A DNA stretch of 64,000 bases, from contig OY781066.1 in assembly GCA_963676395.1 (NCBI GenBank), forward strand, positions 1,664,001 to 1,728,000, read 5' to 3'. The notes beneath the pieces are model-generated. The model did not search any database and was not told the origin of the DNA. It saw only the letters and a program-made list of their open reading frames with translations. This document shows positions 6,571-53,361 of this stretch, piece by piece. The DNA is from a bacterium. GTDB lineage: Bacteria > Fidelibacterota > Fidelibacteria > Fidelibacterales > Fidelibacteraceae. Made by a program: the position numbers and the translations under genes. The stretch's first letter is position 1. Each line of letters opens with the position of its first letter.

Positions 6571-6608
6571 CTTTAACCGTCATCTCAGTTTTTAATTTTA
6601 CCACGGGA

Positions 6609-6773
6609 TCAGACCTTCCCCGACTTGTTGTCTAAAGCGACCCAAAAACAGCTGCTGTTCTTTAGAATGCGATAGTGTGTTTCCGGAAGCGGCGGATTCG
6701 ACCAACCGACAAAAAAACCTGTCAACTGCTCGTTGTTGATCTTTGTGATATCATTGATGTATTCCAGTGCCAT
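6609..6773 (-). pseudogene. Truncated GNAT acetyltransferase (N-terminal 54 aa only)
   Basis: MALEYINDITKINNEQLTGFFVGWSNPPLPETHYRILKNSSCFWVALDNKSGKV*; the GFFVGWxNPPxPETH start is typical of a GNAT family, and the acetyl-CoA motif is missing. Confidence 0.65.
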
Positions 6774-6809
6774 TTTTATCTCTGTAATCTAATTGTTCTG
6801 CACCGTGAT

Positions 6810-10374: not shown

Positions 10375-10458
10375 GAACGATAAAGGATGAATGATAAAGG
10401 ATGAATGATAAAAGATGAATGATAAAAGATGAATGATAAAAGATGAATGATAAAAGAT
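10375..10458 (+). repeat. 14-bp tandem repeat (GAAYGATAAARGAT) x6
   Basis: Units at 10375, 10389, 10403, 10417, 10431 and 10445. Confidence 0.92.
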
Positions 10459-10640
10459 GAACGATTAATACGAAGAAGCTCCAGAGGAGCGACATCTTTT
10501 CTTTATTAAGGTAAAAAGATGCCACTCCTACGGAGTTTAAAATTATTTGGATACATAATTCTCTACAAAGATGTCATCCCTACGGGATTTAGCATCCGAT
10601 CAATCGATGAAGCTCCGACGGTTTTGTAAATATTTAACTG

Positions 10641-13899: not shown

Positions 13900-13927
13900 A
13901 AAAACCTCTTAAAATATTTGGACTAAT

Positions 13928-14950: not shown

Positions 14951-14972
14951 TTTTAAAACCTTACTTAATTAA

Positions 14973-15521
14973 TTATTTTTTAAAAAAACTTCTCAAATTA
15001 AATCCAATTCCACAAAAGCTCGGTTCCAAAATAACACCATTGAGTAATTTTGCACCAAAGCCTTTTCTCATTTCCTTATTAATATTAAAATTTTGTAAAA
15101 TTTTCTTATCTTTTATATCAGAAAATATATTTGAAATCAGGGAAATTACATCTTGTTCTGAATTGCAATGTTTTTTAATTGGGATTAATATAATTTTCGA
15201 TTCTATGCTATCGATTTGATTTATATATTTATCTTTGAATGTATGTGGATTATCTCTTGTTATCAATATTGCAGGGAGGATATCTTTTCCTTTTTCTCCA
15301 TTAATATGATGCCAAGACATAATCTCATTATCAACATGACTTCCTACTGTACCTGTAATAAAAACAGAATTAGTTTTAGAGGCTTCATTTGAAATTTTAT
15401 TGAAGTTTTCCCAAATAATATTTGATAATGGTCCTTTCCAGCCATAATCAAGTAAATACAAATAATAGTCTCGGGTTACATTTTGTGGAATTTCATTTAA
15501 ACTGTGAATCATCAATCCCAT
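14973..15521 (-). CDS. Hypothetical protein (182 aa), first gene of the AT-rich unit
   Basis: Clean ORF with GGAG RBS; YYLYLLDYGW, LPAILIT, ILEPSFCGIGFNL. Confidence 0.75.
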   Translation of the reverse strand: MGLMIHSLNEIPQNVTRDYYLYLLDYGWKGPLSNIIWENFNKISNEASKTNSVFITGTVGSHVDNEIMSWHHINGEKGKDILPAILITRDNPHTFKDKYINQIDSIESKIILIPIKKHCNSEQDVISLISNIFSDIKDKKILQNFNINKEMRKGFGAKLLNGVILEPSFCGIGFNLRSFFKK

Positions 15522-15897
15522 ATTTTCTCCAATTAATAGTTTTATCGATTAACAATAACCATTTGCTATATTCTAAAATTATTTCATTTATGTAATAAAT
15601 CATCAATTACAATTTTCTCTATTTGTTTTTAGTTTCTTTCATGTAAACTATTGTAAATATGTGAAATTAACAAATAGTTTTTCTCATAATAGCCTGAAGG
15701 AAAGGGGAATCTGAGAAATCATCACATGTAGCCTCCCTATAGCTTTGGTAAAGGTGTGGTTAATACTGAACTATTCCAGTAGTACACGGCTTTTCGAAAA
15801 TTTAATACTCATACGGCTCAAGAAGAACGAGAGTATGAGGGTACGAGTGCAGGAGAGTGAGAGAGTACGATGAATAAAGATTTAGAATTTATTTCTT

Positions 15898-16016
15898 CAA
15901 CCCCTCCGGGGTTGTGATTTGAGTGGTACCCCGGCTATACTGTTCTTGAACCCTTTCAGGGTTCTTAATGATCTTATGATATAATAACTTTCGATATATA
16001 ATCCCGACGGGGTTGA
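15898..16016. repeat. Cluster of short REP-like palindromes
   Basis: CAACCCCTCCGGGGTTG, AACCCTTTCAGGGTT, AATCCCGACGGGGTT. Confidence 0.7.
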
Positions 16017-16112
16017 ATAAGTTGAATACGTTAACTTGCACAGAGGTTCTGAACCCGTCAGCGAATAGCTGCCGTTTCAAGATGACTATGTTGTGTGATA
16101 TTCCCGGAAAAA

Positions 16113-16961
16113 CTACATATGCAAATTCAAAAACTCTTTCACCGCAGGAAACTGGTTAATGATCACATGTCCGGTATCTTCTAAAAGCCTGATATCCGCA
16201 TGGGAGACGAGATTTCTCAATCGTTCAGCGCTGGCTTGCGAATTCAAGATGACATCATGATCTCCGCCGAAATACTGCAGAGGTGCTGACAGTTTCATCA
16301 GCATGTCATCGCTGAAGATCGGTATCGCCTCCATGAGCGGATTGAAATGTTTGGACATGACAGCCTGGAAGTCCAGCACTTCAACCGGAACTTCCGTATT
16401 GTGATAAAGAGCTTTGTTTAGACGCTTTTGTCCGGCTTTGCCCAGCATCATGTAGACGATCGCTTTAAAGATAAAGCTTATTTTGGCAGGCACGATCCCC
16501 GAGCTGGTGAGCAAGGATAGTGCGGTGATCCGTTGCGGGTTTTTTAGCGCAAAGTTTAGACTATACCAACTGCCCAGGCTCATGCCCAGAAATGAGGCTT
16601 TTGCGATATCCAGTTCATCCAGCAGTGACGCAAGCCACTCGCCGGGTGCATCGGAATTCAGAGGCAGTCGTTTTGCTTCACTTAAGCCCGGTTCACCCGG
16701 GATATCAACACAGTAGACACAGAAACGATCGATAAAATCACCCACATTGCCAAACCAGCTGGCGGAGTTGGATGTGGATCCATGAAGCATAATAAGTGCC
16801 GGTTTGGATGTATCGCCAAATCTCAATACGTGGGTTTTTGCGTGCTTTGTTTCAATAAATAACTGTTCAAATGAGGGACCGTTATATTCAGCCAGTGTTT
16901 TCTTGTACAGCGATTCGATGATCTTTTTGCCTTCTTCGCTTTTATAAATGCTTGTGTTCAT
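16113..16961 (-). CDS. Alpha/beta fold hydrolase
   Basis: LHGS, DIPGEPG, nucleophile GMSLG, D (GDHD) and H (TGH). Confidence 0.9.
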   Translation of the reverse strand: MNTSIYKSEEGKKIIESLYKKTLAEYNGPSFEQLFIETKHAKTHVLRFGDTSKPALIMLHGSTSNSASWFGNVGDFIDRFCVYCVDIPGEPGLSEAKRLPLNSDAPGEWLASLLDELDIAKASFLGMSLGSWYSLNFALKNPQRITALSLLTSSGIVPAKISFIFKAIVYMMLGKAGQKRLNKALYHNTEVPVEVLDFQAVMSKHFNPLMEAIPIFSDDMLMKLSAPLQYFGGDHDVILNSQASAERLRNLVSHADIRLLEDTGHVIINQFPAVKEFLNLHM

Positions 16962-16962
16962 G

Positions 16963-17439
16963 TCATTGTCCTTTTGTCCGGTTCAGTTCGTCGAAAATAG
17001 TCAGTATCTTGCTGATAAAACCCGGATCGCCATAGAAAGTATATTTAGCTTTTTGGATTTCGGGGTAATAAATGAAATCATAACGCGTCCCACCGCTCTG
17101 TCCTTTGTCGCTGTTCAGCATGGCCATGAGTGAATTTGACAGCCGCGATGCTTTTTCGGAATCCTGATCTTTGATCTCAACGACAACGGAAGCATTGATC
17201 TGTTCTTTGCTTGACGCGTTGCCGGACGTTATGGACGGCAGCTGGTCGTTGGATAACTCGGCATGACAATAGTTTTTAAGCTCCTCTTCGCTTACCATCC
17301 AGGAGCGGCCGATCTTTTTTGCCTTGATCTTGCCCTCTTTGATAAAGCGGATAATGGTCTTCGGGTGAAGTTTTAAAATGCCCGACAGGTCTGAGACCGA
17401 GTAAAGTTTAAGTTCCATATACATCCTTTTCGTTTTCAA
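16963..17439 (-). CDS. Excisionase/MerR-like HTH (HTH_17) DNA-binding protein; real start may be 17418-17424
   Basis: LYSVSDLSGILKLHPKTIIRFIKEGKIKAKKIGRSWMV; abuts the hydrolase gene. Confidence 0.82.
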   Translation of the reverse strand: MKTKRMYMELKLYSVSDLSGILKLHPKTIIRFIKEGKIKAKKIGRSWMVSEEELKNYCHAELSNDQLPSITSGNASSKEQINASVVVEIKDQDSEKASRLSNSLMAMLNSDKGQSGGTRYDFIYYPEIQKAKYTFYGDPGFISKILTIFDELNRTKGQ

Positions 17440-17584
17440 TTCGAGCAGAATATAGTGCGGCGAATTTGAAACAACAAGAATAAAAAGTAATAATAAGAAG
17501 TAAAGGGGAATAATAGGGAGTAATTATGCTAAAATAACATGGAAAAGGGGATAAATGGGGGTGTGAGGGTGCGAGGGAACGAGA

Positions 17585-17653
17585 GTAGGGAGCGGTCGTG
17601 ACCGTTCCTGAAAGAGATTGTTTGGAAGCGGAATAGTCGCGACTGTTCCCTAC
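17585..17653. repeat. GTAG-type REP doublet (REPIN-like)
   Basis: GTAG-GGAGCGGTCGTGACCGTTCC ... GGAATAGTCGCGACTGTTCC-CTAC in inverted orientation. Confidence 0.85.
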
Positions 17654-17764
17654 GGTTGATCAGGCAATGACAGAATTCTTACACAGATCATGAATTCGTT
17701 AATTGGCGGACCTCCGGACATCGTTTCAGGAGGACTAAACAAAAAGGGATTTTCTTAATTAAAT

Positions 17765-17796
17765 AAAAAAACTCCCCGAAGCATGATCCGGGGAGT
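17765..17796 (-). terminator. Intrinsic terminator
   Basis: ACTCCCCG...CGGGGAGT stem followed by a T-run on the minus strand. Confidence 0.75.
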
Positions 17797-17821
17797 ACCT
17801 GTTTTATCTGTTAAATTTTTA

Positions 17822-18034
17822 TTAACTTTTAACTTCGACCGCTTTGGGGTCGGGACCGTATTTGTTTTCCTTCGCTTCACCCTCGGTTACATTCAGGACA
17901 AAGATCCATATGCTTCCTATAACCGGAATCAGTTCGAGGAGTAACATCCAACCACTTTTACCAATGTCATGAAGCCGTCTGACAGCAAGGGCTAAAAATG
18001 GAATGATCATAATGATTAGATATTTGTTATCCAT
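17822..18034 (-). pseudogene. DUF805 family membrane protein, apparently internally deleted
   Basis: GAGGT RBS and MDNKYL jump straight to IIPFLALAVRRLHDIGKSGW...NKYGPDP; the usual N-terminal GRA-R-E-W motif and TM segments are absent. Confidence 0.65.
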
Positions 18035-18047
18035 ATTTACCTCTCAA

Positions 18048-18596
18048 TTATTTACCTTCCCAGCAAGGAGAAACAGTGACATATTCATTTAGTTGAGCCC
18101 ATCTGACAAAGTCATAGGTCTTGAATGAATCAACCCAACACTCTTCCTCACCCTCCGGGACATGGAAATATATGGTGCAGCCAAGACTGCTATCTTCGAG
18201 TGACTGCCGTAATTTATATTGCTCCATATTTTCAAGCCATAGCTGTTGATGAAGCGTATCTTTTATAGTCACCAATGCCGGAAAAACCGTGATAACCTGT
18301 GTATAATGACTAAGATAACCACTGGTGTTGATAACGTAAGGTTTTGCGTTAAGGCTACTTATTACATATTGCAAACTATCAGACCCTAATGCTGATCTAA
18401 AAGTTAATCCATGAATATTTTCCACGTCGTGATCAAATAAATTGATAAAATCAAATACCCGGTTGATGGGATAATCACCTCTGATCCCGACAAGTACATC
18501 CGTCGGGACATATTCGGGTTCGTCGTGATCGATCGGATCAACACATGCGCCTAGCATTAAAAGAGAAATTGCCATGAAGAATTTTAAGAATTTCAT
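18048..18596 (-). CDS. Hypothetical lipoprotein
   Basis: Signal peptide with lipobox LGAC. Confidence 0.7.
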   Translation of the reverse strand: MKFLKFFMAISLLMLGACVDPIDHDEPEYVPTDVLVGIRGDYPINRVFDFINLFDHDVENIHGLTFRSALGSDSLQYVISSLNAKPYVINTSGYLSHYTQVITVFPALVTIKDTLHQQLWLENMEQYKLRQSLEDSSLGCTIYFHVPEGEEECWVDSFKTYDFVRWAQLNEYVTVSPCWEGK

Positions 18597-18731
18597 GTAA
18601 AGCCTTTTATTATTTTAATTTATAAAAAGTATTGTAAATATGTTAGAATGACAAGTGGTATTTCTTGCAATATGCTGAGAATTAGAGAAATCTGCGCAAT
18701 CTGTGGGTAGTGTCGTTTCAATTACTCTAAA

Positions 18732-18845
18732 TCATGAATAGATCTCTCCCACAGGCGCCGTGCGCTTGATCCGGCGTTTTTTTATTGCTTTCATTAGCGG
18801 AAATAGTAAATCAGTCTGAGGAGAGGGAAGTTTGATCATTTCCAT
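18732..18845 (-). pseudogene. Decayed 5' fragment of the nitroreductase gene
   Basis: MEMIKLPSPQTDLLFPLMKAIKKRRIKRTAPVGE versus MKNIIPLPPPQTNLSFPLMKAIKERRTKRRFAAEAVGE. Confidence 0.85.
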
Positions 18846-18983
18846 TATATGTGAATTTCTTGCTTTAGAAGCCAAAAATGGTTGGTAATAATGTTTTTCT
18901 CAACCCATCAACGAACAGAAAGAGAGGCGATCCTTTCGTCATTTCAAAAAGAATATTTTGTGTTTGTCCTTCTTTTTAAAAGA

Positions 18984-19943
18984 TCATGATGAAAATAATT
19001 GTTTATAATGCTTTCTGACAGTGTTTTGATATTTCTGCTTCCCGAGGTCTGATAAAAATGATTTGTCGATAAATTTTAACATCTCTTCTTCTTTTTCCCG
19101 ACTTTGTTCTATGATCGTATCTAAGATATTATCTTTAATATTCCAGCGTTTTCCCAATTCAATGAAATGCTTTATGGAGTATTCATAAGGTGTTGTTAAT
19201 AAATGATCCTTTGTTCGTTCCATTTCTTTAAAAAGGTTCATGGCTATTTGGGTGTCATCAATATGAAGTTTTGTGTTCATTAGATCATAAGAAGGGGAAA
19301 GGATCATATCGCCGTTTTGTGATTCAAGAAGTGAAATATTTTTCAAGTGGACATCACCATTTCCGGTCAAAAAATTGAAGATCAGTATTTTTATAAATTT
19401 AATTTTATCAAGTGGATTCAGGTTATGACCAACGTCTTCATACGTTGCGGAATTATACTTGTTAATTCCAGAATTGCTGATACTTAGTATAGACGTAAAA
19501 TCCTCCTGGCGCAACGGGTCGCCATTATTATCTCGGTCAAATCTGCGGGTTAGATACACCGGCTCGCCATCGGCAAAATACATGAAAGCACATTTTGCAG
19601 TATCAATATTGAATATTTGGTCAGCCATTTGCATCGTCAAGTGTTCATTGGCGGGAGAATCTAAATACAGATCCCATCTTGAATCGAGGAAAGGTTTAAC
19701 GATATACATCGATTCCAAATCAATATTCGGCATAAGTAATTTATTTTTATTTCTTCCTATAAACCCTTTTGCCTGAACGCCGGAAAGGCTAAATCCAGTC
19801 GGTCGGCCGATGTTTCGTTTTCTAATATCATTCCAATTAAAATCAAGCGTCACCGGAACTTTTGATCTGTCAAAAAGCTTGCTTTCACATGCTGAACAAA
19901 AGCCATCTACATTGTTTTTTAAACATCCATGACAATATGACAT
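18984..19943 (-). CDS. HipA-family Ser/Thr kinase toxin (HipT-like, C-terminal domain only)
   Basis: FSLSGVQAK loop, ANEHLTM, TRRFDR, GNGDVHLKN, LSPSYDL; N-terminal CxxC...CxxC. Confidence 0.9.
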   Translation of the reverse strand: MSYCHGCLKNNVDGFCSACESKLFDRSKVPVTLDFNWNDIRKRNIGRPTGFSLSGVQAKGFIGRNKNKLLMPNIDLESMYIVKPFLDSRWDLYLDSPANEHLTMQMADQIFNIDTAKCAFMYFADGEPVYLTRRFDRDNNGDPLRQEDFTSILSISNSGINKYNSATYEDVGHNLNPLDKIKFIKILIFNFLTGNGDVHLKNISLLESQNGDMILSPSYDLMNTKLHIDDTQIAMNLFKEMERTKDHLLTTPYEYSIKHFIELGKRWNIKDNILDTIIEQSREKEEEMLKFIDKSFLSDLGKQKYQNTVRKHYKQLFSS

Positions 19944-20266
19944 TAGTTTTCATCTTTCTTTATTGTAATTGCCCCTATTGTATCATGACCACACGTATTA
20001 ATCAATAAATTCCAATCATCATGAATATCAATTCCCAAGGCTTTACATTGCATTTGCCTGTTATAGCCCTCTGAAAGCATTGATTGAAAAAAAGGAAAAA
20101 GCTGTTTAGCATGATATGTTTTTTGAGATTTTGGTAAATTGATTGAAATAGGATAAAGTTCATTATTTCTTATAAAATCATCATCGTATTCAAAGTGATA
20201 ACCAGTTTCATCCCGCCATAATAAGCCGGCAAGATACTTGTCTTTATAAATGACTTTGGCTCTCAT
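19943..20266 (-). CDS. HipA N-terminal (couple_hipA, HipS-like) protein
   Basis: AGLL, YHFEYD, PISINLP, LFPFFQSMLSEG, DTIGAITI; its stop overlaps the kinase start. Confidence 0.88.
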   Translation of the reverse strand: MRAKVIYKDKYLAGLLWRDETGYHFEYDDDFIRNNELYPISINLPKSQKTYHAKQLFPFFQSMLSEGYNRQMQCKALGIDIHDDWNLLINTCGHDTIGAITIKKDEN

Positions 20267-20471
20267 TATGCTTTCTTAACTCCAATTTGATCTCCAGATC
20301 CAGGTAATAGAATATTTCGTTAAGCGTTTCAAAAGAAGGATTTGCCTTCCCATTTTCGATAAGGGATAATGTTACAACCGTCAATCCGGTATAAGCGGCA
20401 AGTTCTTTTTGTGAGATGGATAAGACCTTCCGCCTTTCTCTAATCTTCTTTCCTAATTCTCGTTTGTTCAT
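20244..20471 (-). CDS. XRE-family HTH regulator (HipB-like)
   Basis: IRERRKVLSISQKELA...LSLIENGKANPSFETL. Confidence 0.9.
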   Translation of the reverse strand: MNKRELGKKIRERRKVLSISQKELAAYTGLTVVTLSLIENGKANPSFETLNEIFYYLDLEIKLELRKHNESQSHL

Positions 20472-20479
20472 TGTGCCAG

Positions 20480-20690
20480 TTAAATTATAATTAAACTATT
20501 ATTACGAATATAATTGTTTGGGTGCTCTATGTCAATAATATTTAATTATAATTAAAATATTATATCAAACAACACTGTTTTGGTCTAAATGTTAATAATA
20601 TTAAAATATAATTAAACTATTATCGTAATAATGATGTTTGCCTGTAATATTGTGTGGAATATTAAAATATAATTAAAGTATTATAACATA
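20480..20690. promoter_or_regulatory. Four phased palindromic operators upstream of the hipB-like gene
   Basis: TTWAAWTATAATTAAA cores with TATAAT at 20486, 20547, 20607 and 20668; perfect palindrome at 20541-20556. Confidence 0.7.
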
Positions 20691-20714
20691 TTATATTCCC
20701 CATCCCAGGAATGC

Positions 20715-20904
20715 ACGCACCGGCTCTTGGCGCGCTCGGTGGCCTCGTAAGTAATGCCGCAGGCCGCCCAGAGCAGATTACTTAGATCCTGCTCGCCGAC
20801 CGCCTCAGCGGCAAAACGTCGTTTTGTCCGGCGTTGGTTGATCGCTTGCATGAGGGGGAAGGTGAGGTTGGTTTGGGGCGGGGCAGAGACATAATATTTT
20901 TTAT
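20715..20904 (-). pseudogene. Second, longer 5' fragment of the nitroreductase gene
   Basis: Collinear with 11060-11243 for about 60 codons; start mutated to ATA, 1-bp deletion in codon 9, similarity ends after AKS. Confidence 0.92.
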
Positions 20905-20986
20905 GAATGAGTTCCTTATTTTGTTACAAGAAAGAGAAGGGGTTTAAAATTGATGGTTGGAGAGTTAGGAGTCAGAGAAGTGATAT

Positions 20987-23900
20987 TTATTCCTCTCTTA
21001 TAAACTTCAATTCTGGTAAAACTATTCTAAACTCTTTATCCAATTTATCTTTATGCCAAAATATAATATAATTAACAAGAGCTTCTGAAAGCTTATAACC
21101 TTTGTTTTTGTAATCCTCGATTTTCTTTTTAAAGCTTCTTGAAAATTTTAGCACGCAATTTCCATCTTTATCTGAACAGCCATCATCATTAACTATAAGT
21201 TCATCACCACCTTTAAGCGTGGAAATATATTTCTGTCTTTTAATAAAATAATCTAACCAAATGTCTTTATGTGATAAATGTAATAGCAGAAGATTTGATG
21301 TTTCGTATGGGGTATCATCATACTTGCGTTCAATATTATTACAAGAATAATTGTCTAAATAATTCCCATTTAAATGAATGGTTAGATTTTCTTTTGCTCT
21401 AGTCATTGCGACATATAATTCTCTTTTGATAGCGTCAGTACGTGGAGAAATATTTCTTAGCATCAAAAACACATTATCAAATTCTTTACCCTTTGCTTTA
21501 TGGTTTGTTGAAACTAATATTGTTTCTCTAATGGTACTAATAAAATCCTCAAGCTTTGATTCTTTTACAAAGACCTCAAAATCGGATTTGAATTTCTTTT
21601 CCGGATTACTAAGTTCAAATGCTTTAATCAGATGAATACATATTTCAATTTTTGAGCTTTCTTTATAGTTATTCCATAGTTTTCTCTTAGCTGATTTCCA
21701 GTCCTCTGGGGATATCGTGTATTTGTCTTCCGAGAAATTAAGTTGATTAATAAAATATCTTACTTCAAGTATGTTGTGTAAACTAAACCAATCGTTGCTT
21801 TGGATTAATTTTGCTTTTATTCCTTTATTAAGTAATAGTCCCGTTATTTGTAAGGCTTCGGAATTCTCATGAGTTAATATGCACGTGCTCCCATTTAGGT
21901 CAGAGTTAAGTATGTCCATAATTACCGGTTTCGATAGATTTGGACTGGAATATTTTATTATCTTAAGTTTCCCGTTTTCACTTGAGTGAGGAATGATCGG
22001 ATTTGTTTTAAGTCGTTTTTGGATTCCCGTAGCAAACTGATTGGTAAATTCAACAAGGTTGGCCCTACTGCGATAATTTTCTATTAGCTCAATCTTTTTA
22101 GCATTTTGTTCAACAATGAATCTTTCAAGATATTCAGAACTAGCTCCCCTAAATTCATAAATATTTTGATCATCATCGCCAACAGCAATAACTCTCATTC
22201 CTTCATTTTTATCCATTAATATTTTAATTAACTCAAATTCATGCTTGTCCATGTCTTGGGCTTCATCAATTACCAAAACGGTTTTTGTAATTCGGTTTGA
22301 TTCAATATCTCCAGATCTGATTTTCTCAATCGTGTTTTTTATTATTGTTTCTGATTTCTCGATTGAACCGACCTTTCCTAGTAGATCAAAACAATATGAA
22401 TGAAAGGTTTTTATTTCAATATATGCTGCAGCATTTCCTATTAAAGTAAATAATCGTTTCTTGAACTCTGAGGCTGCTGCTCGTGAAAAAGTTACCATCA
22501 ATAATTGTTCGTGTTTAACATCTTCCATTAATAATAATGAAGCAAGCTTATGTACCAAAACTCTGGTTTTACCACTTCCGGGACCGGCTGTTACAGCAAT
22601 ATATGGAGAACTATTATCATTGATAATGCTGAGTTGTCTAGGGGATAACTCACCGAATAGTTGGCTGAATTTTTCAGGGGTGATATTTTGCTTTATTTCA
22701 TTTTGTCTGCTGCCCTTAAAATATTTATTTAGAAATGAAGAATAATTAAGTTGAAAATAATCTTCGACAAATTGTAGTGCCGATTTGTAATCCTGAATCA
22801 TTTTTTTTGCATATTCACCTACAATATGAATTTGCTGAACTCTCTGCTCATAGAATTGATTTAGTTTTTTATAATCTTCTGCCTTATATCTAACTTTATT
22901 GTCTTTTTCAAGTCGTTCAATTGTGAGTTTATTATATATGACTAAAAATCCACCTTCAATTTTTATAGCATCAATTCTTGAAAGATAGAAGAGGGCATCT
23001 TCAACATCCGAAATCGAAATTTGGAGTTTAAAAAGAGAGTTACTATTCTCATATTGTTGCTTTAATTCATGAACGGAAAACTCAACGTATAGGTATTCTT
23101 TGTTAGCATCCGATCTAGAAAGGTTTTGACTGCTTTTCCCATATAGATAATCGGTTATAAAGCGAGCTAAATCATGTCTTCTTTTTAATCTATTTCTTAA
23201 TTCATGTACCGGATAATTTGATACAACAGAAAGGTGGTTATTAGAAGTGTTACTTTGCTTTCTCTTAAGCCAGTTCTTAATCACCCAAAAGTTTATGATC
23301 GTTTTTAGCTTGTTAGGTGAAATATCTGTGCAGCCATTTTCTTCTGCCAATTCATTTAGCTCTTTAATGTGGAAAGATTTTTCCTCTTCATCAAATTGAG
23401 TTAATAAGAATTTCTCTATTTTGCTAATTGAATTAACAATTCTAAGTGATCGGTTTTTATTTTCTCCTTGCTTAATAAAAGCTGTCAAATCTTTTGTATC
23501 TGCTAATATTTTTTCTTCTCGTAATAAATTTATTGCATTGATCACATCTTCTTTTACAATGCCTAAATGGTCTGATATGTAGTCTACTCTCGATTCTGCC
23601 ACTTCGTCAGTAGCTTGTTTTCTGCTTTTACTGGAAAATAGTTTTTTTATAATTCTGACAGCATCTTGTCTTTGTTTGGTGTTGAACTTTTCCGACACAT
23701 TAATTTTGTCAATAGCCTCTTGAGCATTTTTTGTTAGAATACTATTAGCAAATATTCTAGGTGTATTTTGTCCGCGTTTTAGGTAACCTGACTCTTCTAA
23801 GGCTGAAATTGCAGTTGTCACTCTTGTCTCGATCTCAACGACATTATCATCCCATCCGGCTTTCCTTGCAATTTCCAGGGCTGAATTTGAAACACTTGAC

Positions 23901-25789
23901 CTGAATTTAGTTATTTCCTTAATAGCAACCCATATCTGCTGGATCTCCTTAATATTTAACTTAGTCTGGTTAAGTAATATGAAGTGCTTGCTAAGATCTT
24001 CCTCATTAAAAAGTACATAACAATCAGCTGATATTTTTTCATCCCTTCCAGCTCTGCCAGCTTCTTGGACATAGTTTTCAAGAGAATCAGATAATTCGTA
24101 ATGAATCACCATACCGACATCTTTTTTATCTACTCCCATACCAAATGCTGAAGTAGCAACCATGATATCAACATCGCCTCTAATAAATGCATCCTGATTT
24201 TCTGATTTCTCCTGCTTATCCATTTTACCATGATAGGGTTTTGCAGAATATCCATCCTTAGAAAGTTTTTCAGCAATTTGATAAGCTCTTTTAGTACGAG
24301 AAACATAAATAATGGTTGGACAGTTTTTCCCGTCAATGAGATTGCGTAGACTCTCATACTTATCTACTTCCGTAGCCTTAGGGATTACCTTGTAATGTAG
24401 ATTAGTACGGGAGGCATTTGAGCTAAAGATTTCTAGTTCTAAGTCTAATTTATCTTTAAAATAATCCTTAATATCTTGAATAACATTTTGCTTGGCAGTT
24501 GCTGTAAAACAAGAAACCGGAATCGGGTTTTTAAGTTTTTTCTTTTCTTGTAATGATTTTATGAAATCACCTATGTATAGATAATCAACTCTAAAATCTT
24601 GACCCCAAGCAGAAAAACAATGTGCCTCATCAATAATGAAACGTACAACATTTCTACCAAGTAATAAGCGCTCGATTGATCTTGATCTTAAAGATTCTGG
24701 TGAAATATAGAGAAGAGATGTTGTGCCATTTTCGACTCTTTCAAAAGATTTTCCTCTTTCGATGGGATCCAGCAAACCGTTTATTGTAACTGCTTCGGTG
24801 ATATTTGCTTTTTCTAAATTATCTACCTGATCTTTCATCAAAGATTGCAATGGAGATATGACAACAGTTAAGCCTTTAACATATTCACCACTCATTAACG
24901 CAGGGACTTGAAAGGCTAAAGATTTTCCACCGCCGGTTGGAAATACCGCAATTAAAGATTTATTTTTTATCGCTGCCTCAACGGCTTCTTTTTGTAGTTC
25001 TTTGCCGCCAAAACTTCTGTATGAAGAATATCCGAAGTAATTTTTTAATGCCATATCTGCATTAAGAAAACTGTTGCAATATCGGCATCCCCTCATGCAG
25101 GGATTATTTCTTAATAAATACATTATCCGTTCAATATCAGGATAATTCTTGATCACCCAGGGAGGTGTAATAGAGTATCGGCTATCAGTATTTATTAAGG
25201 CTAGAGAATAAGCTAATTCAACAGGATATTCTTTTATTGTTTTTCTTAATTGGAAATTTTGACAAATTTTATCAAAGAATTTATTCGTTATTAGATTTTC
25301 AATATTTCGGTTACCAGGAAAATATTCTACAACATCAAAGAAAGCTGAAAATTCCATTTTATCCTTGAGTAATGTATAATATATTTGTTTTAAGTCGTTG
25401 TCAAGTTTGTGAAATGCTTCGACCTCATCGCGGAAGAGAGCTCTTGCTTTTATAGCATCATTCAGAGGATTGTTTAGTTCTTCTGTTTGTAGTTTGTCGT
25501 CTTTTAAAAGTGCATGATATGGCTTTTTAGGAAATAGTAGTGGAGATAAAAATAAAGTATCAATGGCTTTTATTTTGGATACATTTATATCTGTTGCTTT
25601 TGCAATAAATTTCAAGTCATGATTAATGATGTTGTGCCCACAAATAAATTCATTTTGGTTAATAAATGCAAGAAGTACTGACATGGATTTAGAGTGGAAT
25701 TTCATTCCATCATTAGATACTCCACCTATATCAAGTATTTGTTGGCTTTTGGCTTCTACTTCGGTATCTATGAAGGCAATTTTTTTCAT
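20987..25789 (-). CDS. Multidomain helicase: DEDD-like exonuclease + RecQ (SF2) + UvrD/Rep (SF1) fusion
   Basis: FIDTE/GHNIINHD/DTL; PTGGGKS, DEAH, TATA, ATSAFGMG, QEAGRAGRD; AGPGSGKT, DEAQD, VGDDDQNIYEFRGA, ENYRS, HKAKGKEF, YVAMTRA. Confidence 0.92.
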   Translation of the reverse strand: MKKIAFIDTEVEAKSQQILDIGGVSNDGMKFHSKSMSVLLAFINQNEFICGHNIINHDLKFIAKATDINVSKIKAIDTLFLSPLLFPKKPYHALLKDDKLQTEELNNPLNDAIKARALFRDEVEAFHKLDNDLKQIYYTLLKDKMEFSAFFDVVEYFPGNRNIENLITNKFFDKICQNFQLRKTIKEYPVELAYSLALINTDSRYSITPPWVIKNYPDIERIMYLLRNNPCMRGCRYCNSFLNADMALKNYFGYSSYRSFGGKELQKEAVEAAIKNKSLIAVFPTGGGKSLAFQVPALMSGEYVKGLTVVISPLQSLMKDQVDNLEKANITEAVTINGLLDPIERGKSFERVENGTTSLLYISPESLRSRSIERLLLGRNVVRFIIDEAHCFSAWGQDFRVDYLYIGDFIKSLQEKKKLKNPIPVSCFTATAKQNVIQDIKDYFKDKLDLELEIFSSNASRTNLHYKVIPKATEVDKYESLRNLIDGKNCPTIIYVSRTKRAYQIAEKLSKDGYSAKPYHGKMDKQEKSENQDAFIRGDVDIMVATSAFGMGVDKKDVGMVIHYELSDSLENYVQEAGRAGRDEKISADCYVLFNEEDLSKHFILLNQTKLNIKEIQQIWVAIKEITKFRSSVSNSALEIARKAGWDDNVVEIETRVTTAISALEESGYLKRGQNTPRIFANSILTKNAQEAIDKINVSEKFNTKQRQDAVRIIKKLFSSKSRKQATDEVAESRVDYISDHLGIVKEDVINAINLLREEKILADTKDLTAFIKQGENKNRSLRIVNSISKIEKFLLTQFDEEEKSFHIKELNELAEENGCTDISPNKLKTIINFWVIKNWLKRKQSNTSNNHLSVVSNYPVHELRNRLKRRHDLARFITDYLYGKSSQNLSRSDANKEYLYVEFSVHELKQQYENSNSLFKLQISISDVEDALFYLSRIDAIKIEGGFLVIYNKLTIERLEKDNKVRYKAEDYKKLNQFYEQRVQQIHIVGEYAKKMIQDYKSALQFVEDYFQLNYSSFLNKYFKGSRQNEIKQNITPEKFSQLFGELSPRQLSIINDNSSPYIAVTAGPGSGKTRVLVHKLASLLLMEDVKHEQLLMVTFSRAAASEFKKRLFTLIGNAAAYIEIKTFHSYCFDLLGKVGSIEKSETIIKNTIEKIRSGDIESNRITKTVLVIDEAQDMDKHEFELIKILMDKNEGMRVIAVGDDDQNIYEFRGASSEYLERFIVEQNAKKIELIENYRSRANLVEFTNQFATGIQKRLKTNPIIPHSSENGKLKIIKYSSPNLSKPVIMDILNSDLNGSTCILTHENSEALQITGLLLNKGIKAKLIQSNDWFSLHNILEVRYFINQLNFSEDKYTISPEDWKSAKRKLWNNYKESSKIEICIHLIKAFELSNPEKKFKSDFEVFVKESKLEDFISTIRETILVSTNHKAKGKEFDNVFLMLRNISPRTDAIKRELYVAMTRAKENLTIHLNGNYLDNYSCNNIERKYDDTPYETSNLLLLHLSHKDIWLDYFIKRQKYISTLKGGDELIVNDDGCSDKDGNCVLKFSRSFKKKIEDYKNKGYKLSEALVNYIIFWHKDKLDKEFRIVLPELKFIREE

Positions 25790-36321: not shown

Positions 36322-37821
36322 ATGAATAAGTCTAGACAATACATCCTCGTACTTTTTCTGTTATTGCTTTCCGTGCCTCTGTTTGCGCAAGTTGTTCCCT
36401 TTAGTCTGACACTGGGATCGGAAACTAAAAACGTGTTTGCTTCGGATCTTTACGGAGCCCGCTGGGTATCGTTGAACAGTTTTTTTCGTTCATTTGGTGT
36501 GGTTGAAAAAATGGATACCGAAAATTGGGAGCTAAGAACGACTTTATCAGGCAAGACGTACAAGTTTTATGCCAATTCATCCTTTTATCAGGTGAATGGT
36601 AAGTGGTTTCATCTGGCAACCACGGTGGAGCGCTTGGGTAATGGTTTGTACATTCCAGAGAAAGAATTTATTTTGGTACTACATCGGGAGGCCTTTCCCG
36701 AAATGGTTAAGGATATTGTATCCGGCGCTTATATTCTTGCGCCGACCGAATTTTCTATCACTGGGATGAATATTCTTGAAATGAAGAACGGAACCATCGT
36801 TCGTCTCAAAACCTCAAAATTCTTTAGAAAAGATCATTGCCGCGTATGGCAGGGAGCTAATCAGTATCTCTATATTTCTATTTACGATGCTACTGCCGAT
36901 ATGAATGGTTTGGCAAGAACATTTGATCATGGTGTTATACGTGAGATCGTGCCGGTGCAGGCGAAAGAAATGTTGCAATTCAATATGAAATTGCGCATGA
37001 GGATCAAAAGCATGGATTATTATATTGACCAGAATAACGGCGATATTGTAATCTCTTTGCGTCATGATTATCAAAAAAATCAAACCCCCATTAATGAAAC
37101 TCAGATCAAAAACCGCTGGTTGATCGATACCATTGTGATCGATCCCGGTCACGGTGGTCGAAAATCTCCCGGTGCCATCGGCCCGGATGGTACTTTGGAA
37201 AAAACCATTGCTTTGGATGTTTCTCGACGTCTTGGTTCAATGCTGGAGGATAAATTGGGTGTTAAGGTTATTTACACACGTGAAAACGATGTGTTTATTC
37301 CTCTTTATCAACGTCCAAAGATCGCCAATGAAGCGGGTGGAAAATTGTTTATATCCATTCACTGTAATTCTTCGACTTCATCTTCTCCCTACGGTACCGA
37401 AACCTATATTTTAGCACCAAAAAGCACAGAAAAATCCATTGAAATCGCGGCACGCGAAAACAAGGTGATCGAGCTTGAGGAAGATAGAGAACGATATGAA
37501 AAAATGCTGAGTTCTGAACAGTATATTCTTTCTACTATGGCTCAGTCTGTATATATGAAAGAAAGTGAGATGCTGGCGCAATCGATCGAAACAAAGTTTA
37601 AAGGACGTTTGGGTGCAAAAAGTCGTGGTGTTAAACAGGCTTCGTTTATTGTTTTGATAGGTCCGGCAATGCCTGCAGTGTTAACAGAGATCGGATTTAT
37701 TTCTAACTGGCGTGAATTGAGTAATCTTAAAAAAGATTCCTATCGCCAGGAAGTGGCATATTCCTTGTATCAAGCGATAAGAGATTTTAAGAATAATTTC
37801 GAGAAAGAAATAAAAGAGTAA
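36322..37821 (+). CDS. N-acetylmuramoyl-L-alanine amidase (Amidase_3, AmiA/B/C-like)
   Basis: Signal peptide, IDPGHGG, EK, SIHCN, GTETY, ENKV, PAVLTEIGFISN. Confidence 0.93.
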   Translation: MNKSRQYILVLFLLLLSVPLFAQVVPFSLTLGSETKNVFASDLYGARWVSLNSFFRSFGVVEKMDTENWELRTTLSGKTYKFYANSSFYQVNGKWFHLATTVERLGNGLYIPEKEFILVLHREAFPEMVKDIVSGAYILAPTEFSITGMNILEMKNGTIVRLKTSKFFRKDHCRVWQGANQYLYISIYDATADMNGLARTFDHGVIREIVPVQAKEMLQFNMKLRMRIKSMDYYIDQNNGDIVISLRHDYQKNQTPINETQIKNRWLIDTIVIDPGHGGRKSPGAIGPDGTLEKTIALDVSRRLGSMLEDKLGVKVIYTRENDVFIPLYQRPKIANEAGGKLFISIHCNSSTSSSPYGTETYILAPKSTEKSIEIAARENKVIELEEDRERYEKMLSSEQYILSTMAQSVYMKESEMLAQSIETKFKGRLGAKSRGVKQASFIVLIGPAMPAVLTEIGFISNWRELSNLKKDSYRQEVAYSLYQAIRDFKNNFEKEIKE

Positions 37822-37851
37822 GCAAACAGCGTACAGCTGATAGTAGGCAGC
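37817..37851 (+). repeat. Degenerate heptamer array (NNNNAGC) x5 upstream of the four-helix-bundle gene
   Basis: AGTAAGC AAACAGC GTACAGC TGATAGT AGGCAGC. Confidence 0.65.
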
Positions 37852-37875
37852 AAATGCAAGTCATGGGGGTGACGG

Positions 37876-38235
37876 ATGCGTGATTTTAAGAAATATGATA
37901 TTTGGCATAAAAGTCATAATTTTGCAATGAAAGTATATTGTGAAACAAAGCTTTTTCCTAAAGATGAGACCTATGGATTAAGGAGCCAATTAAGAAGGGC
38001 GGCAACATCAATACCTACTAATATTGTAGAAGGTGCCGGTCGAGATGGCGACAAGCAGTTTGCACGATTTGTCGATATCGCTATGGCATCGGCATGTGAA
38101 TGCGAGTATTTACTTATATTGATACAAGAGTTAAACTATATTTCTGATAAAAATTATAGAGACCTTGAAAAGAAAGTCGTTGAAATCAAGAAAATGCTTG
38201 CAACTTTATATAAAAGATTGAAACTTGATAGCTGA
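37876..38235 (+). CDS. Four helix bundle protein (23S rRNA IVP-like family)
   Basis: DFKKYDIWHKS, FPKDETYGLRSQLRRAATSIPTNIVEGAGR, IAMASACECEY. Confidence 0.93.
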   Translation: MRDFKKYDIWHKSHNFAMKVYCETKLFPKDETYGLRSQLRRAATSIPTNIVEGAGRDGDKQFARFVDIAMASACECEYLLILIQELNYISDKNYRDLEKKVVEIKKMLATLYKRLKLDS

Positions 38236-38323
38236 TAGCTGATAGCTGATAGCTGATAGCTGATAGCTGATAGCTGATAGCTGATAGCTGATAGCTGATA
38301 GCTGATAGCTGATAGCTGATAGC
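38226..38323 (+). repeat. Perfect heptamer tandem repeat (TGATAGC) x14
   Basis: 98 bp; contains the last codons and the TGA stop of the four-helix-bundle gene. Confidence 0.97.
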
Positions 38324-38354
38324 TGACATAAACATAACCCGAAAGTATACTACA

Positions 38355-39179
38355 ATGTCCAAAGGTAAAATTGGCATCTTCGATAGCGGTTTAGGCGGCC
38401 TCACTGTCTATAAAGAGATCAGGAAATTGCTTCCCGATTACGATTATCTGTATCTTGGAGATTCTGCCAGAACGCCCTATGGTACTCGCTCTTTTGAAAC
38501 CATTTATCATTACACTCAGCAGGGTGTTGAAAAACTTTGGGATTTGGGTTGTCCACTCATTATTCTAGCTTGTAACACGGCGTCCGCGAAAGCATTGCGC
38601 AGTATTCAGCAGAAAGATCTCGTCGAAAAATATCCCGATCGTCGGGTTCTCGGTGTGATCCGTCCTTCGGTGGAGGTGGTGGGGGAGGCATCTAAAACGC
38701 GAAAAATAGGACTTTTTGGCACCACTGGAACCGTGAGATCGGAATCCTATAAAATGGAATTTGATAAACTATTTCCTGACCTTGAACTTTTCCAGGAAGC
38801 TTGTCCCATGTGGGTACCGCTGGTTGAGAATAATGAGATCGATACGCCGGCTGCAGATTATTTTGTGAAACGACATGTGGAGCATCTTTTAGGCAAGAAT
38901 GCTGATATCGATACGATCATTCTGGCTTGTACGCATTATCCCATGTTGGTTGACAAAATCAAACAATATTTGCCCGACGGAATTCGCGTGATGGATCAAG
39001 GTCCGCTGGTTGCCGATAAATTGGCAGATTATTTGCAACGCCATCCTGAGATAGAAAGCCGGTGTGCCAAGAACGGCAAAGAAGAGTTTTATACTACCGG
39101 TTCAACGGAATTGTTTAAGAAGAATGCTTCGATGTTTTTCGGTAAGAAGATTTTGGCGGGACACATAGAATTAAAATGA
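38355..39179 (+). CDS. murI: Glutamate racemase
   Basis: FDSGLGGLT, PYG, ACNTAS, LACTHYP. Confidence 0.96.
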   Translation: MSKGKIGIFDSGLGGLTVYKEIRKLLPDYDYLYLGDSARTPYGTRSFETIYHYTQQGVEKLWDLGCPLIILACNTASAKALRSIQQKDLVEKYPDRRVLGVIRPSVEVVGEASKTRKIGLFGTTGTVRSESYKMEFDKLFPDLELFQEACPMWVPLVENNEIDTPAADYFVKRHVEHLLGKNADIDTIILACTHYPMLVDKIKQYLPDGIRVMDQGPLVADKLADYLQRHPEIESRCAKNGKEEFYTTGSTELFKKNASMFFGKKILAGHIELK

Positions 39180-39227: not shown

Positions 39228-40496
39228 ATGCAAGATTACCTCTCCGATTTATACAAAAAACTCTCCGGCAAAATGAAGCTGGGGCGACAACGGGCCGAAA
39301 TGCTCATGCGGGAGCTGGGGCATCCGGAAAAAGCTTTTCCTTCGATACATATTGCCGGGACTAATGGCAAAGGCACTGTGACTACGGTTGCGGCTGCTAT
39401 TTTACAGCAATTGGGATATAAAACCGGCAAATTCACATCACCGCATTTAATGCGTTTTAATGAGCGGATCTCTGTTGCCGGCAAAGAGATCAACGATAAC
39501 TATATCAAATTGTTTTTAGCAAATCATGATGACTTGTTAGAGAAAAGCGAGGCCTCCTTCTTTGAGGTTACCACCGCTTTGGGCTTCCAATATTTTAAAG
39601 ATCAAGCCGTGGATATCGCGGTGGTGGAAACGGGTCTGGGCGGTCGCCTGGATGCGACCTCGGTATTGACTCCCGATGTTTCCGTGATCACGACCATTGG
39701 CTATGACCATACCGCCATTCTTGGTGAAACACTTCCCGAGATCGCAGCCGAAAAAGCCGGGATCATTAAAGAGGGGAAACCCGTGCTGACCTTGCCGCAA
39801 AGTGAAAAGGTGCTGAATGTTTTTCGGGAAAAGACCGATCTGCTGAGTATCGTAGATCCTAAAGATCTCTTTGCCGATGTAAAACAAACACCTCAAGGGA
39901 TGCGTTTTAATTATCTACCGGAAAGTAGAGAATTGCTGTTTCCGATATGCGGGGAGCATTTGCTGGGAAATATCGGACTGGCTATTGCGGCCGTTGAATG
40001 CTTTCTTGGAAAAAAACTCAAAGCGGATGATTTGCAAAAGGCATTTGATATACTTAGTTGGAAAGGTCGTTTTGAACACCTGTCTTTCGATCCGCCGGTG
40101 ATCTATGATGTAGCACATAATTTTCAGGGTGTGGCGGCTTTTTGTAAGACGGCTATGTTGGTGTATCCCGATAGGGGTTTTATTGCCGTAATGGGACTAT
40201 TAGACGATAAATCACCGGAGAAAGTGATGCAAGAATTGTCTGTTCTAAACGGCAAGATCATTCTTGCACCCGTCAACTCGCACCGCTCGATGAGTATGGA
40301 AAAACTACAGGCTTTGGCCGAAAATTATCCCGGAGTTAAAACGGCAGACTCCGTGACGCAAGCGTGCGAGCGAGCATACGACAAAATGAAAGAAAACGAT
40401 GTTCTGCTTATCCTTGGCTCGCATTATATAGCGGAAGAAGTCTACGGATTTACGAATAATCGAATGAGTGAACATTCGAATGAAATAATCGATTGA
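39228..40496 (+). CDS. folC: Folylpolyglutamate synthase/dihydrofolate synthase
   Basis: HIAGTNGKG, FTSPHL..FNERI, ETGLGGRLDAT, EKAGIIK, GRFE, DVAHN, GSHY. Confidence 0.95.
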   Translation: MQDYLSDLYKKLSGKMKLGRQRAEMLMRELGHPEKAFPSIHIAGTNGKGTVTTVAAAILQQLGYKTGKFTSPHLMRFNERISVAGKEINDNYIKLFLANHDDLLEKSEASFFEVTTALGFQYFKDQAVDIAVVETGLGGRLDATSVLTPDVSVITTIGYDHTAILGETLPEIAAEKAGIIKEGKPVLTLPQSEKVLNVFREKTDLLSIVDPKDLFADVKQTPQGMRFNYLPESRELLFPICGEHLLGNIGLAIAAVECFLGKKLKADDLQKAFDILSWKGRFEHLSFDPPVIYDVAHNFQGVAAFCKTAMLVYPDRGFIAVMGLLDDKSPEKVMQELSVLNGKIILAPVNSHRSMSMEKLQALAENYPGVKTADSVTQACERAYDKMKENDVLLILGSHYIAEEVYGFTNNRMSEHSNEIID

Positions 40497-40575
40497 CGAA
40501 TGAGTGAATAAACAGACAGAACAATCGAGTGACGAATGAGTGAGCAATCGAATGCTTGATTAATCGATTGTTCAA
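40452..40575 (+). repeat. Degenerate octamer-period tract overlapping the folC 3' end
   Basis: GAATAATC GAATGAGT GAACATTC ... GATTGAC GAATGAGT GAATAAAC ... GAACAATC GAGTGAC GAATGAGT GAGCAATC. Confidence 0.7.
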
Positions 40576-53304: not shown

Positions 53305-53330
53305 ATAGTAAGTAGTAAGTAGTGAGTAGT
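53300..53330 (+). repeat. Short heptamer tract overlapping the apbE stop
   Basis: AGTAGAT AGTAAGT AGTAAGT AGTGAGT AGT. Confidence 0.65.
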
Positions 53331-53361
53331 ATACTACTTCTAAACGACTCAGTTTTACATC

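Follow-up and report, generated by a model that had tools for sequence, protein, structure and literature searches.

Small proteins of the S23p or 23S intervening sequence (IVS) family (TIGR02436/PF05635) are encoded within some 23S rRNA genes, and IVSs bearing such an open reading frame (ORF) have been reported from Leptospira, Coxiella, Brucella and Xanthomonas. Crystal structures of the family have been available since 2006-2007. To our knowledge it has neither an assigned function nor a recognised catalytic motif. Here we describe a family member in a 64,000-nucleotide stretch of a Fidelibacterota genome (contig OY781066.1, positions 1,664,001 to 1,728,000 of the forward strand; hereafter the window), where the gene lies between an amidase gene and murI and is accompanied on both sides by tandem repeats of 7 nt. 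From a comparison with relatives of the gene we conclude, with very little reservation, that gene and arrays form one heritable cassette, which resides in short spacers between co-transcribed host genes. The window element has three parts:

37821..37851, + strand: decayed upstream heptamer array of five units (AGCAAAC AGCGTAC AGCTGAT AGTAGGC AGC), read from the sequence
37876..38235, + strand: four-helix-bundle protein gene, 119 aa, of the S23p/23S-IVS protein family (ORF list and PF05635/TIGR02436 profiles)
38226..38326, + strand: perfect (TGATAGC)x14.4 array (Tandem Repeats Finder, TRF: period 7, 100% matches)

In Coxiella, the IVS carries two or three GACAGAT heptamers just 5' of the S23p ORF, their count depending on the strain, and RNase III cleaves at the first of these repeats (PMC4990558). 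The family ORF of Azospirillum lipoferum lies within a 23S rRNA gene (Rfam LSU) and thus represents a classical IVS, which bears out the view, held in a preliminary description of the locus, that the family occurs in such sequences. On its two sides are arrays of complementary sequence, GAGGACG x3.9 and GTCTTCT x4.1, with 32 bp of pairing between them in the minimum-energy fold. Mutually complementary terminal repeats are a feature of ORF-bearing IVSs; in Azospirillum they consist of heptamer arrays, and in Coxiella they partly do (PMC4990558). The window element resembles these IVSs in its protein family and in having its ORF sense-oriented inside a host transcription unit. It differs from them in lying between protein-coding genes and not in helix 45 of the 23S rRNA, and its flanks do not pair with each other (z 0.5 against shuffles), whereas those of 34/84 relatives do. 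An ORF-bearing 23S IVS is the same cassette, placed inside an rRNA gene.

Intergenic heptamers have been described in several classes, among them the TAACTGA repeats and, as another, the short tandemly repeated repetitive (STRR) heptamers of cyanobacteria. TAACTGA repeats are abundant between the genes of Beggiatoaceae, Cyanobacteria and Bacteroidetes (MacGregor 2015, PMC4679880). They too are 7-nt tandem arrays at gene ends, and (TAACTGA)n is equal to (TGATAAC)n, one base from the TGATAGC of the window. In both cases the forward units carry stops while the reverse strand is open, reading LSVISYQ there and SAISYQL in a 72-aa ORF of the window array. According to TRF, the latter fits the tandem-heptamer class with its head-to-tail 7-nt units in a gene-end spacer and its forward-strand stops. 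MacGregor's paper differs from the present case in that it names no associated gene and proposes S1, Csp or CsrA as binders. It identifies no binding protein and asks for one, and its main text does not mention the four-helix-bundle/S23 family (PMC4679880). According to Rehm 2015, there was no detailed literature on heptameric repeats at that time (PMC4692102). Beyond the remark on the Coxiella IVS (PMC4990558), our literature search, which lay outside subscription journals and database family descriptions, found nothing linking TIGR02436/PF05635 to heptamer arrays.

The nearest characterised relative of the family is Avd, the accessory protein of diversity-generating retroelements (DGRs). Avd is described as a pentameric, positively charged barrel that is similar to S23 proteins and contacts an 'Avd-binding RNA' (bioRxiv 10.1101/2023.10.23.563531). 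We modelled the window protein with AlphaFold2 on 36 homologues and obtained four helices with a mean pLDDT (predicted local distance difference test) of 94.8. The top PDB matches of this model in Foldseek were 2GSC, 2RLD and Avd 4DWL, in that order, with template modelling (TM) scores of 0.92, 0.81 and 0.76. The fold shared with Avd, already put forward in the preliminary description, is therefore supported, and the predicted likeness extends to the chains of the DGR ribonucleoprotein (TM 0.73-0.75). The family profile matches 2GSC with an E value of 1.8e-27. Both 2GSC and 2RLD have five chains in their PDB entries, and 2GSC is a homopentamer according to its published description. Sequence identity to Avd amounts to 9-13%, and the window protein is not an Avd by profile, scoring 27.1 bits against a cut-off of 80 with NF033474 (DivGenRetAVD equivalog) and 25.2 against 40 with Pfam bAvd.

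Heptamer arrays around members of the family

A genome profile scan gave at least 587 confirmed relatives among 601 pattern matches, and the best 80 loci, together 731 kb, were analysed. They belong to at least nine phyla (Bacteroidota, Chloroflexota, Poribacteria, Planctomycetota, Ignavibacteriota, Thermodesulfobacteriota, Verrucomicrobiota, Spirochaetota, Pseudomonadota) and to unplaced bins, and they come from genomes other than that of the window. When every ORF of 60 aa or more was searched with the profile, 84 family ORFs emerged, the window's ORF counted in. Of the 731 rows that TRF returned for the 731 kb, 256 have period 7, 66 period 14 and 16 period 21. Arrays of these periods lie within 300 bp of 70/84 family ORFs, mostly abutting the start, the stop or both. 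Period-7 arrays make up 5.3% of bases within 120 bp of the ORF ends, compared to 0.32% beyond 500 bp; periods 5, 6 and 8 make up 0.03% of bases.

The same pattern was seen when family genes were set against their neighbours. As a crude gene set we used the longest non-overlapping ORFs, leaving out genes less than 150 bp from the locus ends, and we counted arrays of at least 2.8 copies. At one end or more, an array was found in 53/80 family genes versus 137/545 other genes, 91 of which neighbour a family gene; at both ends, the figures were 29/80 versus 17/545. Spacers touching a family ORF carried an array in 90 of 162 cases, other spacers in 52 of 488 (odds ratio 10.5), and the difference was retained between length-matched spacers of 20-150 bp (65/127 versus 25/210). 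Since many of the loci are orthologous, we pooled the 83 ORFs from outside the window whenever both neighbours were homologous, which gave 47 host contexts; arrays are present at one end or more in 31 of these and at both ends in 18.

Plasmids provided a separate set. Our tblastn search of PLSDB matched 27 records, 25 of them cyanobacterial, and in all ten loci examined, short-period arrays lie no more than 100 bp from the ORF. Seven of the ten have them at both ends, one of these with period 8. Examples are a cassette of Nostoc edaphicum, with AGTAGGG x7.9 upstream and TCCCTAC x4.9 downstream, and one of N. punctiforme with TCAGGAG and CTGACTC arrays. The preliminary description had regarded gene and repeats as one unit and had suggested comparing 7-mer arrays around family members with those around other genes. 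The comparison came out positive, and the enrichment in bases, genes, spacers and host contexts, together with the plasmid set, strongly supports the unit. We have hardly any doubt that the association with arrays is family-wide and that the cassette concept is sound; that bracketing by 7-nt tandem arrays is the normal setting of the family seems to us nearly certain as well.

The repeat units themselves vary widely among loci, with AGC present in 68/115 flanking units, and most arrays consist of three to five degenerate units. Related Poribacteria have arrays of differing units in orthologous spacers. At one locus (L068, 4682-4989), the family gene is preceded by four copies of an upstream array module, GTAAGCTCTAAGCC plus AAAGCCT units, which recur with a period of 81 bp. 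Arrays of 7-nt units were called on either side of 37 ORFs; comparison of the upstream with the downstream unit shows 17 of these to be inverted, 10 direct, one both and 9 unrelated. Duplex energies below a z of -3 relative to shuffles indicate complementary flanks in 34/84 cassettes and direct likeness in 18/84. For ten cassettes picked for their inverted arrays, the minimum-energy fold joins the arrays by 28-42 pairs. The stop codon of the family ORF falls within the downstream array in 23/83 cases. Downstream arrays also have stops more often on the sense strand (53/64) than on the antisense strand (34/64), a bias that we discounted because an ORF entering a stop-free array would just be longer. 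Array length was compared with the pentamer as well. Near-perfect arrays showed no preference for five units; imperfect arrays were set aside for this purpose, as TRF detects them only when they are long.

The element between the amidase gene and murI

The window ORF scores 130.8 bits with PF05635 (23S_rRNA_IVP; cut-off 33.8) and 128.7 bits with TIGR02436 ('four helix bundle protein', NCBIfam; cut-off 24). In a library of 1.84 billion proteins, the family accounts for 36,750 clusters at 50% identity. A start at 37876 is supported by the sequence MRDFKKYDIW, which agrees with the N-terminus of the family. The gene had previously been placed from 37817 onwards, which is too early and takes in the upstream heptamers; the ORF itself exists and spans 37876..38235. 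The protein has a pI of 9.1. In Pfam, it matches PF05635 and, below the cut-off, bAvd, and nothing else; it has no HUH/Y1 transposase domain. Other affiliations were tried and rejected. Across the 36 members of our family alignment, no Pfam match up to E 1 points to HEPN or another RNase family, and we found no paper joining the two. PADLOC gave no match to a defence system, and tblastn gave none at E 1e-3 in 50,697 phage records.

The host genes, confirmed by the ORF list and by the Amidase_3 and TIGR00067 profiles as those between which the gene had been said to sit, are:

36322..37821, + strand: N-acetylmuramoyl-L-alanine amidase (Amidase_3), upstream host gene (ORF list; Pfam PF01520, E 2.2e-50)
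38355..39179, + strand: glutamate racemase murI, downstream host gene (NCBIfam TIGR00067, 195 bits; cut-off 146.65)

The nearest named homologues of the amidase are from Candidatus Marinimicrobia, with 66-71% identity, and homologues of 65-87% identity exist in all; the genome resembles those of Marinimicrobia. Past murI follows a Mur-ligase/folC-like gene, on the + strand like the amidase gene, the family gene and murI. According to Rfam at gathering scores, the window contains only two tRNAs, and the element is not within a 23S rRNA gene.

The upstream run begins with the final base of the amidase stop codon, which is the first A of the heptamers. AGC occurs at 37821, 37828, 37835 and 37849 and AGT at 37842, spaced exactly 7 nt, so the five degenerate heptamers noted earlier are indeed present. 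TRF did not call this run at score 30. The pattern AGC-N4-AGC-N4-AGC-N4-AG-N5-AGC, which was composed after the site had been seen, matches 21 times in the window, once in the upstream run and 20 times in the perfect array, compared to a mean of 0.00 in 100 shuffles. The statement that both arrays share orientation and motif holds for the motif, AGC at period 7, and for one unit, TGATAGT, that is one base off TGATAGC. It holds less well for the orientation, as three of the five units read CAGC and fit the reverse complement TATCAGC equally, and the duplex z values are 0.5 for complementarity and 0.2 for direct likeness.

Downstream, the perfect array and the ORF share 10 nt. The 3' end of the ORF reads CTT GAT AGC TGA, so that the array contributes the third base of the Leu codon and the whole of the Asp, Ser and stop codons, as had been described. 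Asp-Ser is also the C-terminus of the close homologues P0002-P0004 and P0008. The unit contains TGA and TAG, and the array has stops in all three + frames. As a sense RNA, the array is predicted to fold on itself with -49.4 kcal/mol (z -7.95, 0/200 shuffles as good), each heptad contributing an AGCU palindrome, two G.U pairs and one A.A mismatch. The corresponding energies are -28.5 kcal/mol for the antisense RNA and -13.3 kcal/mol (z -1.08) for single-stranded DNA. In the minimum-energy fold of 37810-38345, the array is paired with itself.

Other heptameric repeats were seen elsewhere in the window. A solo array, (TAGTAAG)x3.7 at 53306-53331, begins 2 nt past the stop codon of ApbE, and a short palindrome comes next. 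At 10375-10465, in a 460-bp spacer 5' of a nitroreductase gene, a 14-bp tandem repeat (x6.5) consists of the alternating heptamers GATGAAT and GATAAAA. Degenerate repeats of the GAATGAG/GAGTGAC type (TRF period 36, x2.6) extend from the final codons of the folC-like ORF into the following spacer (40455-40560), and long reverse-strand ORFs read open through them.

Host sites and probable gain and loss of cassettes

Among the relatives, 62/79 cassettes are co-oriented with both neighbours (the background for a single adjacent pair being 0.79), with median gaps of 63 nt upstream and 46 nt downstream. The sites include groES|groEL, carA|carB, leuC|leuD, lysA|asd, argB|argD, nuoM|nuoN, rmlB|rmlA, cas6|cas4 and cas10|cmr3. 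We scanned 95 of 162 neighbour ORFs against Pfam. Ten loci were omitted as orthologous duplicates. Manual selection removed more ORFs: additional duplicates of groES/groEL size, the two neighbours at each of seven other loci, and six others (five of 83-101 aa, one of 191 aa). Typically, the neighbours are the two halves of an operon pair: Cpn10 and Cpn60, the small and large subunits of carbamoyl-phosphate synthase, the large and small aconitase domains (leuC|leuD), diaminopimelate decarboxylase and asd, amino-acid kinase and aminotransferase, two Proton_antipo_M genes, dehydratase and nucleotidyl transferase, type II secretion system E and F, or paired ABC components. On plasmids, the cassettes lie at cas6|cas4 (twice), cas10|cmr3 and nrdB/nrdA. 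A CRISPR survey includes this domain among CRISPR-linked ones (PMC10910872).

One locus from a Melioribacter bin (L078, 3333-5363) has its family gene directly after an Amidase_3 gene that is 36% identical to the window's over 384 aa; downstream, where the window has murI, there is a 157-aa ORF without Pfam match. In Flavobacteriaceae and Weeksellaceae, 21 loci (L003, L060 and 19 more; about 4640-7120 in each) have the cassette at groES|groEL. Array number and unit vary by species among them, and in some the downstream module is duplicated one to three times.

The clearest case of gain or loss comes from the plasmids of Anabaena sp. 90 and Dolichospermum UHCC 0315A, in which the sequences to the left and right of the cas6-cas4 spacer are 98.5-99.2% identical. 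In Anabaena sp. 90, the spacer measures 849 bp and consists of about 40 heptamers, the gene and a CTGTCAC array. In Dolichospermum, it holds an unrelated 273-bp element (L091, 1533-1805) with inverted ends of the GGTTGGGTTG/CCCAACC type and no cassette. The annotated cas4 start of Anabaena sp. 90 (pANA02; L087, 1884-1951) takes in the CTGTCAC x4.3 array, and homology to the Dolichospermum cas4 begins only at 1952. Judged from this alignment, the true cas4 start is probably downstream of the array. A second case is the cas6-cas4 site of Pseudanabaena, where P. galeata has 712 bp of arrays plus gene and strain ABRG5-3, with flanks 86-89% identical, has 50 bp with about four AATTACG units and no cassette. 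The gap between the two cas genes is 5-66 bp in three other cyanobacteria. In Arthrospira, two such genes are among 24 strain-unique genes (PMC8700078).

The preliminary description had supposed that the unit is gained and lost, and had named fixation of the gene across the lineage, along with a lack of repeat enrichment, as contrary evidence. The two cas6-cas4 comparisons, including the short heptamer array at the empty Pseudanabaena site, agree with gain and loss. Many cassettes, on the other hand, are fixed at a single site throughout a genus or family, as at groES|groEL in Flavobacteriia, and this is half of what had been named. We regard gain and loss as quite probably a real process. We infer that cassettes are occasionally gained, lost or replaced, yet can persist for a long time at one site. 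The protein tree gives no clear sign of transfer between phyla; it resolves little, and the phyla mostly cluster in it.

Possible roles of the arrays

We favour, with modest confidence, the reading that the cassette is an operon passenger of the IVS kind, with arrays that form hairpins as RNA, the probable ligand of a pentameric, Avd-like protein. The cassette would be transcribed by read-through with the host operon. Its arrays would then fold into hairpins, in many relatives by pairing of the upstream with the downstream array so that the ORF is enclosed, and in the window by self-pairing of the downstream array via the AGCU palindrome and two G.U pairs per heptad. Such hairpins might insulate or process the passenger transcript, as RNase III cleavage does for the rRNA version, and they would be the most likely ligand of the pentameric, mildly basic protein. 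Arrays may lengthen and shorten by slippage, which would explain the 14 perfect copies in the window. As 7 is not a multiple of 3, a stop-bearing array would end translation in every frame. By analogy with the 23S IVS, a hairpin or processing role of the arrays is a tentative proposal, and the putative binding of the protein to its own arrays, suggested by the likeness to Avd, is slightly more tentative still.

Several observations weigh against this reading or narrow it. The window's two flanks show neither significant complementarity nor direct likeness in the duplex test, so that a stem around the ORF is inapplicable there and the self-hairpin alone applies. Over 93 cassettes, the flank duplex was no more stable in sense than in antisense (51 versus 41, Wilcoxon p 0.93); with no such asymmetry from G.U pairs, nothing marks the structure as RNA rather than DNA. 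The lack of a preference for five units gives no support to a model of one heptad per subunit. In 14/84 family ORFs and 16/47 contexts no array was detectable, and the 80 loci, 46-57% identical to the window protein, represent one subfamily, the best of at least 587 relatives and not a random sample of the family. Arrays also occur alone: 88 solo arrays (at least 2.8 copies, more than 300 bp from a family ORF) were counted, 64 of them intergenic, and tblastn at E 1e-3 found no gene remnants in them. Many cassettes are syntenic across genera, for example at six Poribacteria loci and four leuC|leuD loci. The protein tree mostly tracks the phyla, with 12 changes versus a minimum of 8 (80 rows and 119 columns; 4 ORFs outside 95-170 aa left out; 37/76 forks open). 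Synteny and tree together indicate that mobility is slow or mostly within genomes. Finally, we found no binding, processing or expression data for non-rRNA cassettes in the literature.

The finding joins two orphans, a large protein family to which, as far as we know, no function has been assigned, and the excess of 7-nt intergenic repeats in cyanobacteria, Bacteroidota, giant sulfur bacteria and others. Considering that the family comprises so many clusters and is without known function, the link between gene and arrays merits a direct test. If gene and arrays are one cassette, they offer a concrete protein-ligand pair for the bench, and ORF-bearing rRNA intervening sequences become a special case of a general operon passenger. 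The reported 'association' of the domain with CRISPR loci or DGRs may then partly be operon hitch-hiking. Annotators should expect the starts and stops of neighbouring genes inside arrays, as with the cas4 start of Anabaena sp. 90.

A further comparison is with the REP-associated tyrosine transposases (RAYTs), which are HUH/Y1 transposases, and the repetitive extragenic palindromes (REPs), which are single palindromes and not tandem heptads. In RAYT/REP(IN) systems, too, a single gene is bracketed by inverted short repeats, and the repeat also occurs between genes as inverted pairs. Among our solo arrays, 16 pairs lie no more than 200 bp apart, with 9 inverted, 1 direct and 6 unrelated. The cassette differs in that it encodes a four-helix-bundle protein without HUH/Y1 domain, and the repeats of the one Y1 gene in the window are unrelated to its heptamers. 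A broader proposal would make TIGR02436 proteins the partners of bacterial intergenic heptamer repeats of the STRR/TAACTGA class, Avd-like pentamers recognising heptad-periodic RNA or single-stranded DNA. Each cassette would have its own arrays, and solo arrays would be targets or offspring, as REPINs (REP doublets forming hairpins) are to RAYTs; 23S IVSs, groESL and cas passengers and the amidase-murI insert would all be one kind of element. We consider this proposal doubtful at present.

The Y1 gene just mentioned is an IS200-like (HUH-type) transposase fragment at 5781-6113 (- strand), with REP-like hairpins at about 5757-5773 and 6237-6252. Adjoining it, at 5364-5741, is a 72-bp tandem repeat (x5.2), each unit with its own hairpin, so that 5364-6310 forms a RAYT/REP-like cluster whose repeats are unrelated to the heptamers. 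An HUH or reverse transcriptase partner had been suggested for the element. The window does contain one HUH-type gene, namely this fragment, but it is 32 kb away and has hairpin repeats of its own. The reverse transcriptase did not materialise: a scan for protein domains in 52 window ORFs, namely the 47 with 90 aa or more and the 5 at the locus, revealed none.

Among the alternatives, the arrays may act as DNA and serve as recombination handles, so that cassettes move between array-bearing spacers by homologous recombination of like arrays. Between direct arrays, such recombination would release the cassette as a circle, with a solo array staying behind. This agrees with the direct flanks of 18/84 cassettes by duplex z and 10/37 by unit, and with Pseudanabaena galeata (L082), which has (AAAAGCT)x15.6 upstream and (AAAAGCC)x14 downstream. 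Pairing without sense/antisense bias and the short heptamer array at the empty Pseudanabaena site are also as expected, and solo arrays share the unit (within one base) of the cassette at the same locus in 21/60 cases, compared to 0.11 +/- 0.04 for a random other locus. However, inverted flanks outnumber direct ones, and recombination between inverted arrays would turn the gene around without removing it. At the empty site, the AATTACG unit differs from that of the cassette, the Dolichospermum site holds an unrelated 273-bp element in place of a solo array, and most arrays, at three to five degenerate units, offer RecA little length. The window's upstream array has decayed too far for recombination with the perfect array. 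Overall, we consider recombination of this kind unlikely as the explanation.

We judge it somewhat less likely again that the protein makes or maintains the repeats, as an Avd-like pentamer working with a polymerase or reverse transcriptase. Its products would then be both the solo arrays and those at the ends of cassettes, in a manner resembling RAYTs and their REPINs or the iterative copying of a short template. Sharing a fold with Avd, which is indispensable for DGR reverse transcription, would suit such a role, as would the sharing of units between the cassette and solo arrays of a locus and the differing units in orthologous Poribacteria spacers, which imply rapid turnover. Period 7 is about ten times commoner than 5, 6 or 8 even far from the gene, but this excess was measured in family-bearing loci alone. 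The candidate enzyme is missing from the surroundings: no reverse transcriptase domain was found in the 52 window ORFs or the 95 neighbour ORFs scanned, and none is annotated in the 10 plasmid stretches (1.5 kb on each side). The family, moreover, has no catalytic motif known to us, and its score with the NCBIfam Avd equivalog is 27 bits versus 80.

Very improbable, in our view, is a neutral by-product, in which heptamer arrays accrue by slippage in any unconstrained spacer and a small foreign gene merely creates such spacers, so that the association has no function. Arrays do occur in 52/488 other spacers and, when solo, are 13 times denser between genes (0.59 per kb) than in crude genes (0.044 per kb). 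Their units differ widely by locus, and an over-representation of heptamers in many bacteria, with polymerase slippage as a suggested cause, has been published (PMC4692102). Yet the difference of about fourfold persists between length-matched spacers (65/127 versus 25/210), 31/47 independent contexts have arrays, and complementarity between upstream and downstream arrays is much more frequent than in shuffles. The pattern also recurs inside a 23S rRNA helix, where the sequence is not unconstrained.

A local contingency switch, with the 14-copy tract as a hypermutable element that tunes murI or the four-helix-bundle gene by its length, can be given equally little credit: the array is unusually long and perfect, as only a few of the 256 period-7 rows from the 80 loci attain 10 copies, it ends 28 nt before the murI start, and a promoter-like pair (CTGACA, 17 nt, TATACT; 10 of 12 bases) begins at its last bases, but the stop codon lies within the first unit, so copy number cannot alter the protein, and the array is upstream of the only nearby -35-like hexamer, so promoter spacing is unaffected; the frame or spacing change of a phase-variable locus is thus lacking, promoter-like sites in the region are not above chance (9 found versus 12.0 +/- 3.5 expected), and the family-wide pattern would be left unexplained.

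Elsewhere, the window contains a conflict-type gene cluster (11518-25789). It includes an AAA_13 ATPase (11518-13899), a hipA-like kinase with its N-terminal partner (18984-20266) and a 1600-aa fusion of DEAD and UvrD helicases (20987-25789).

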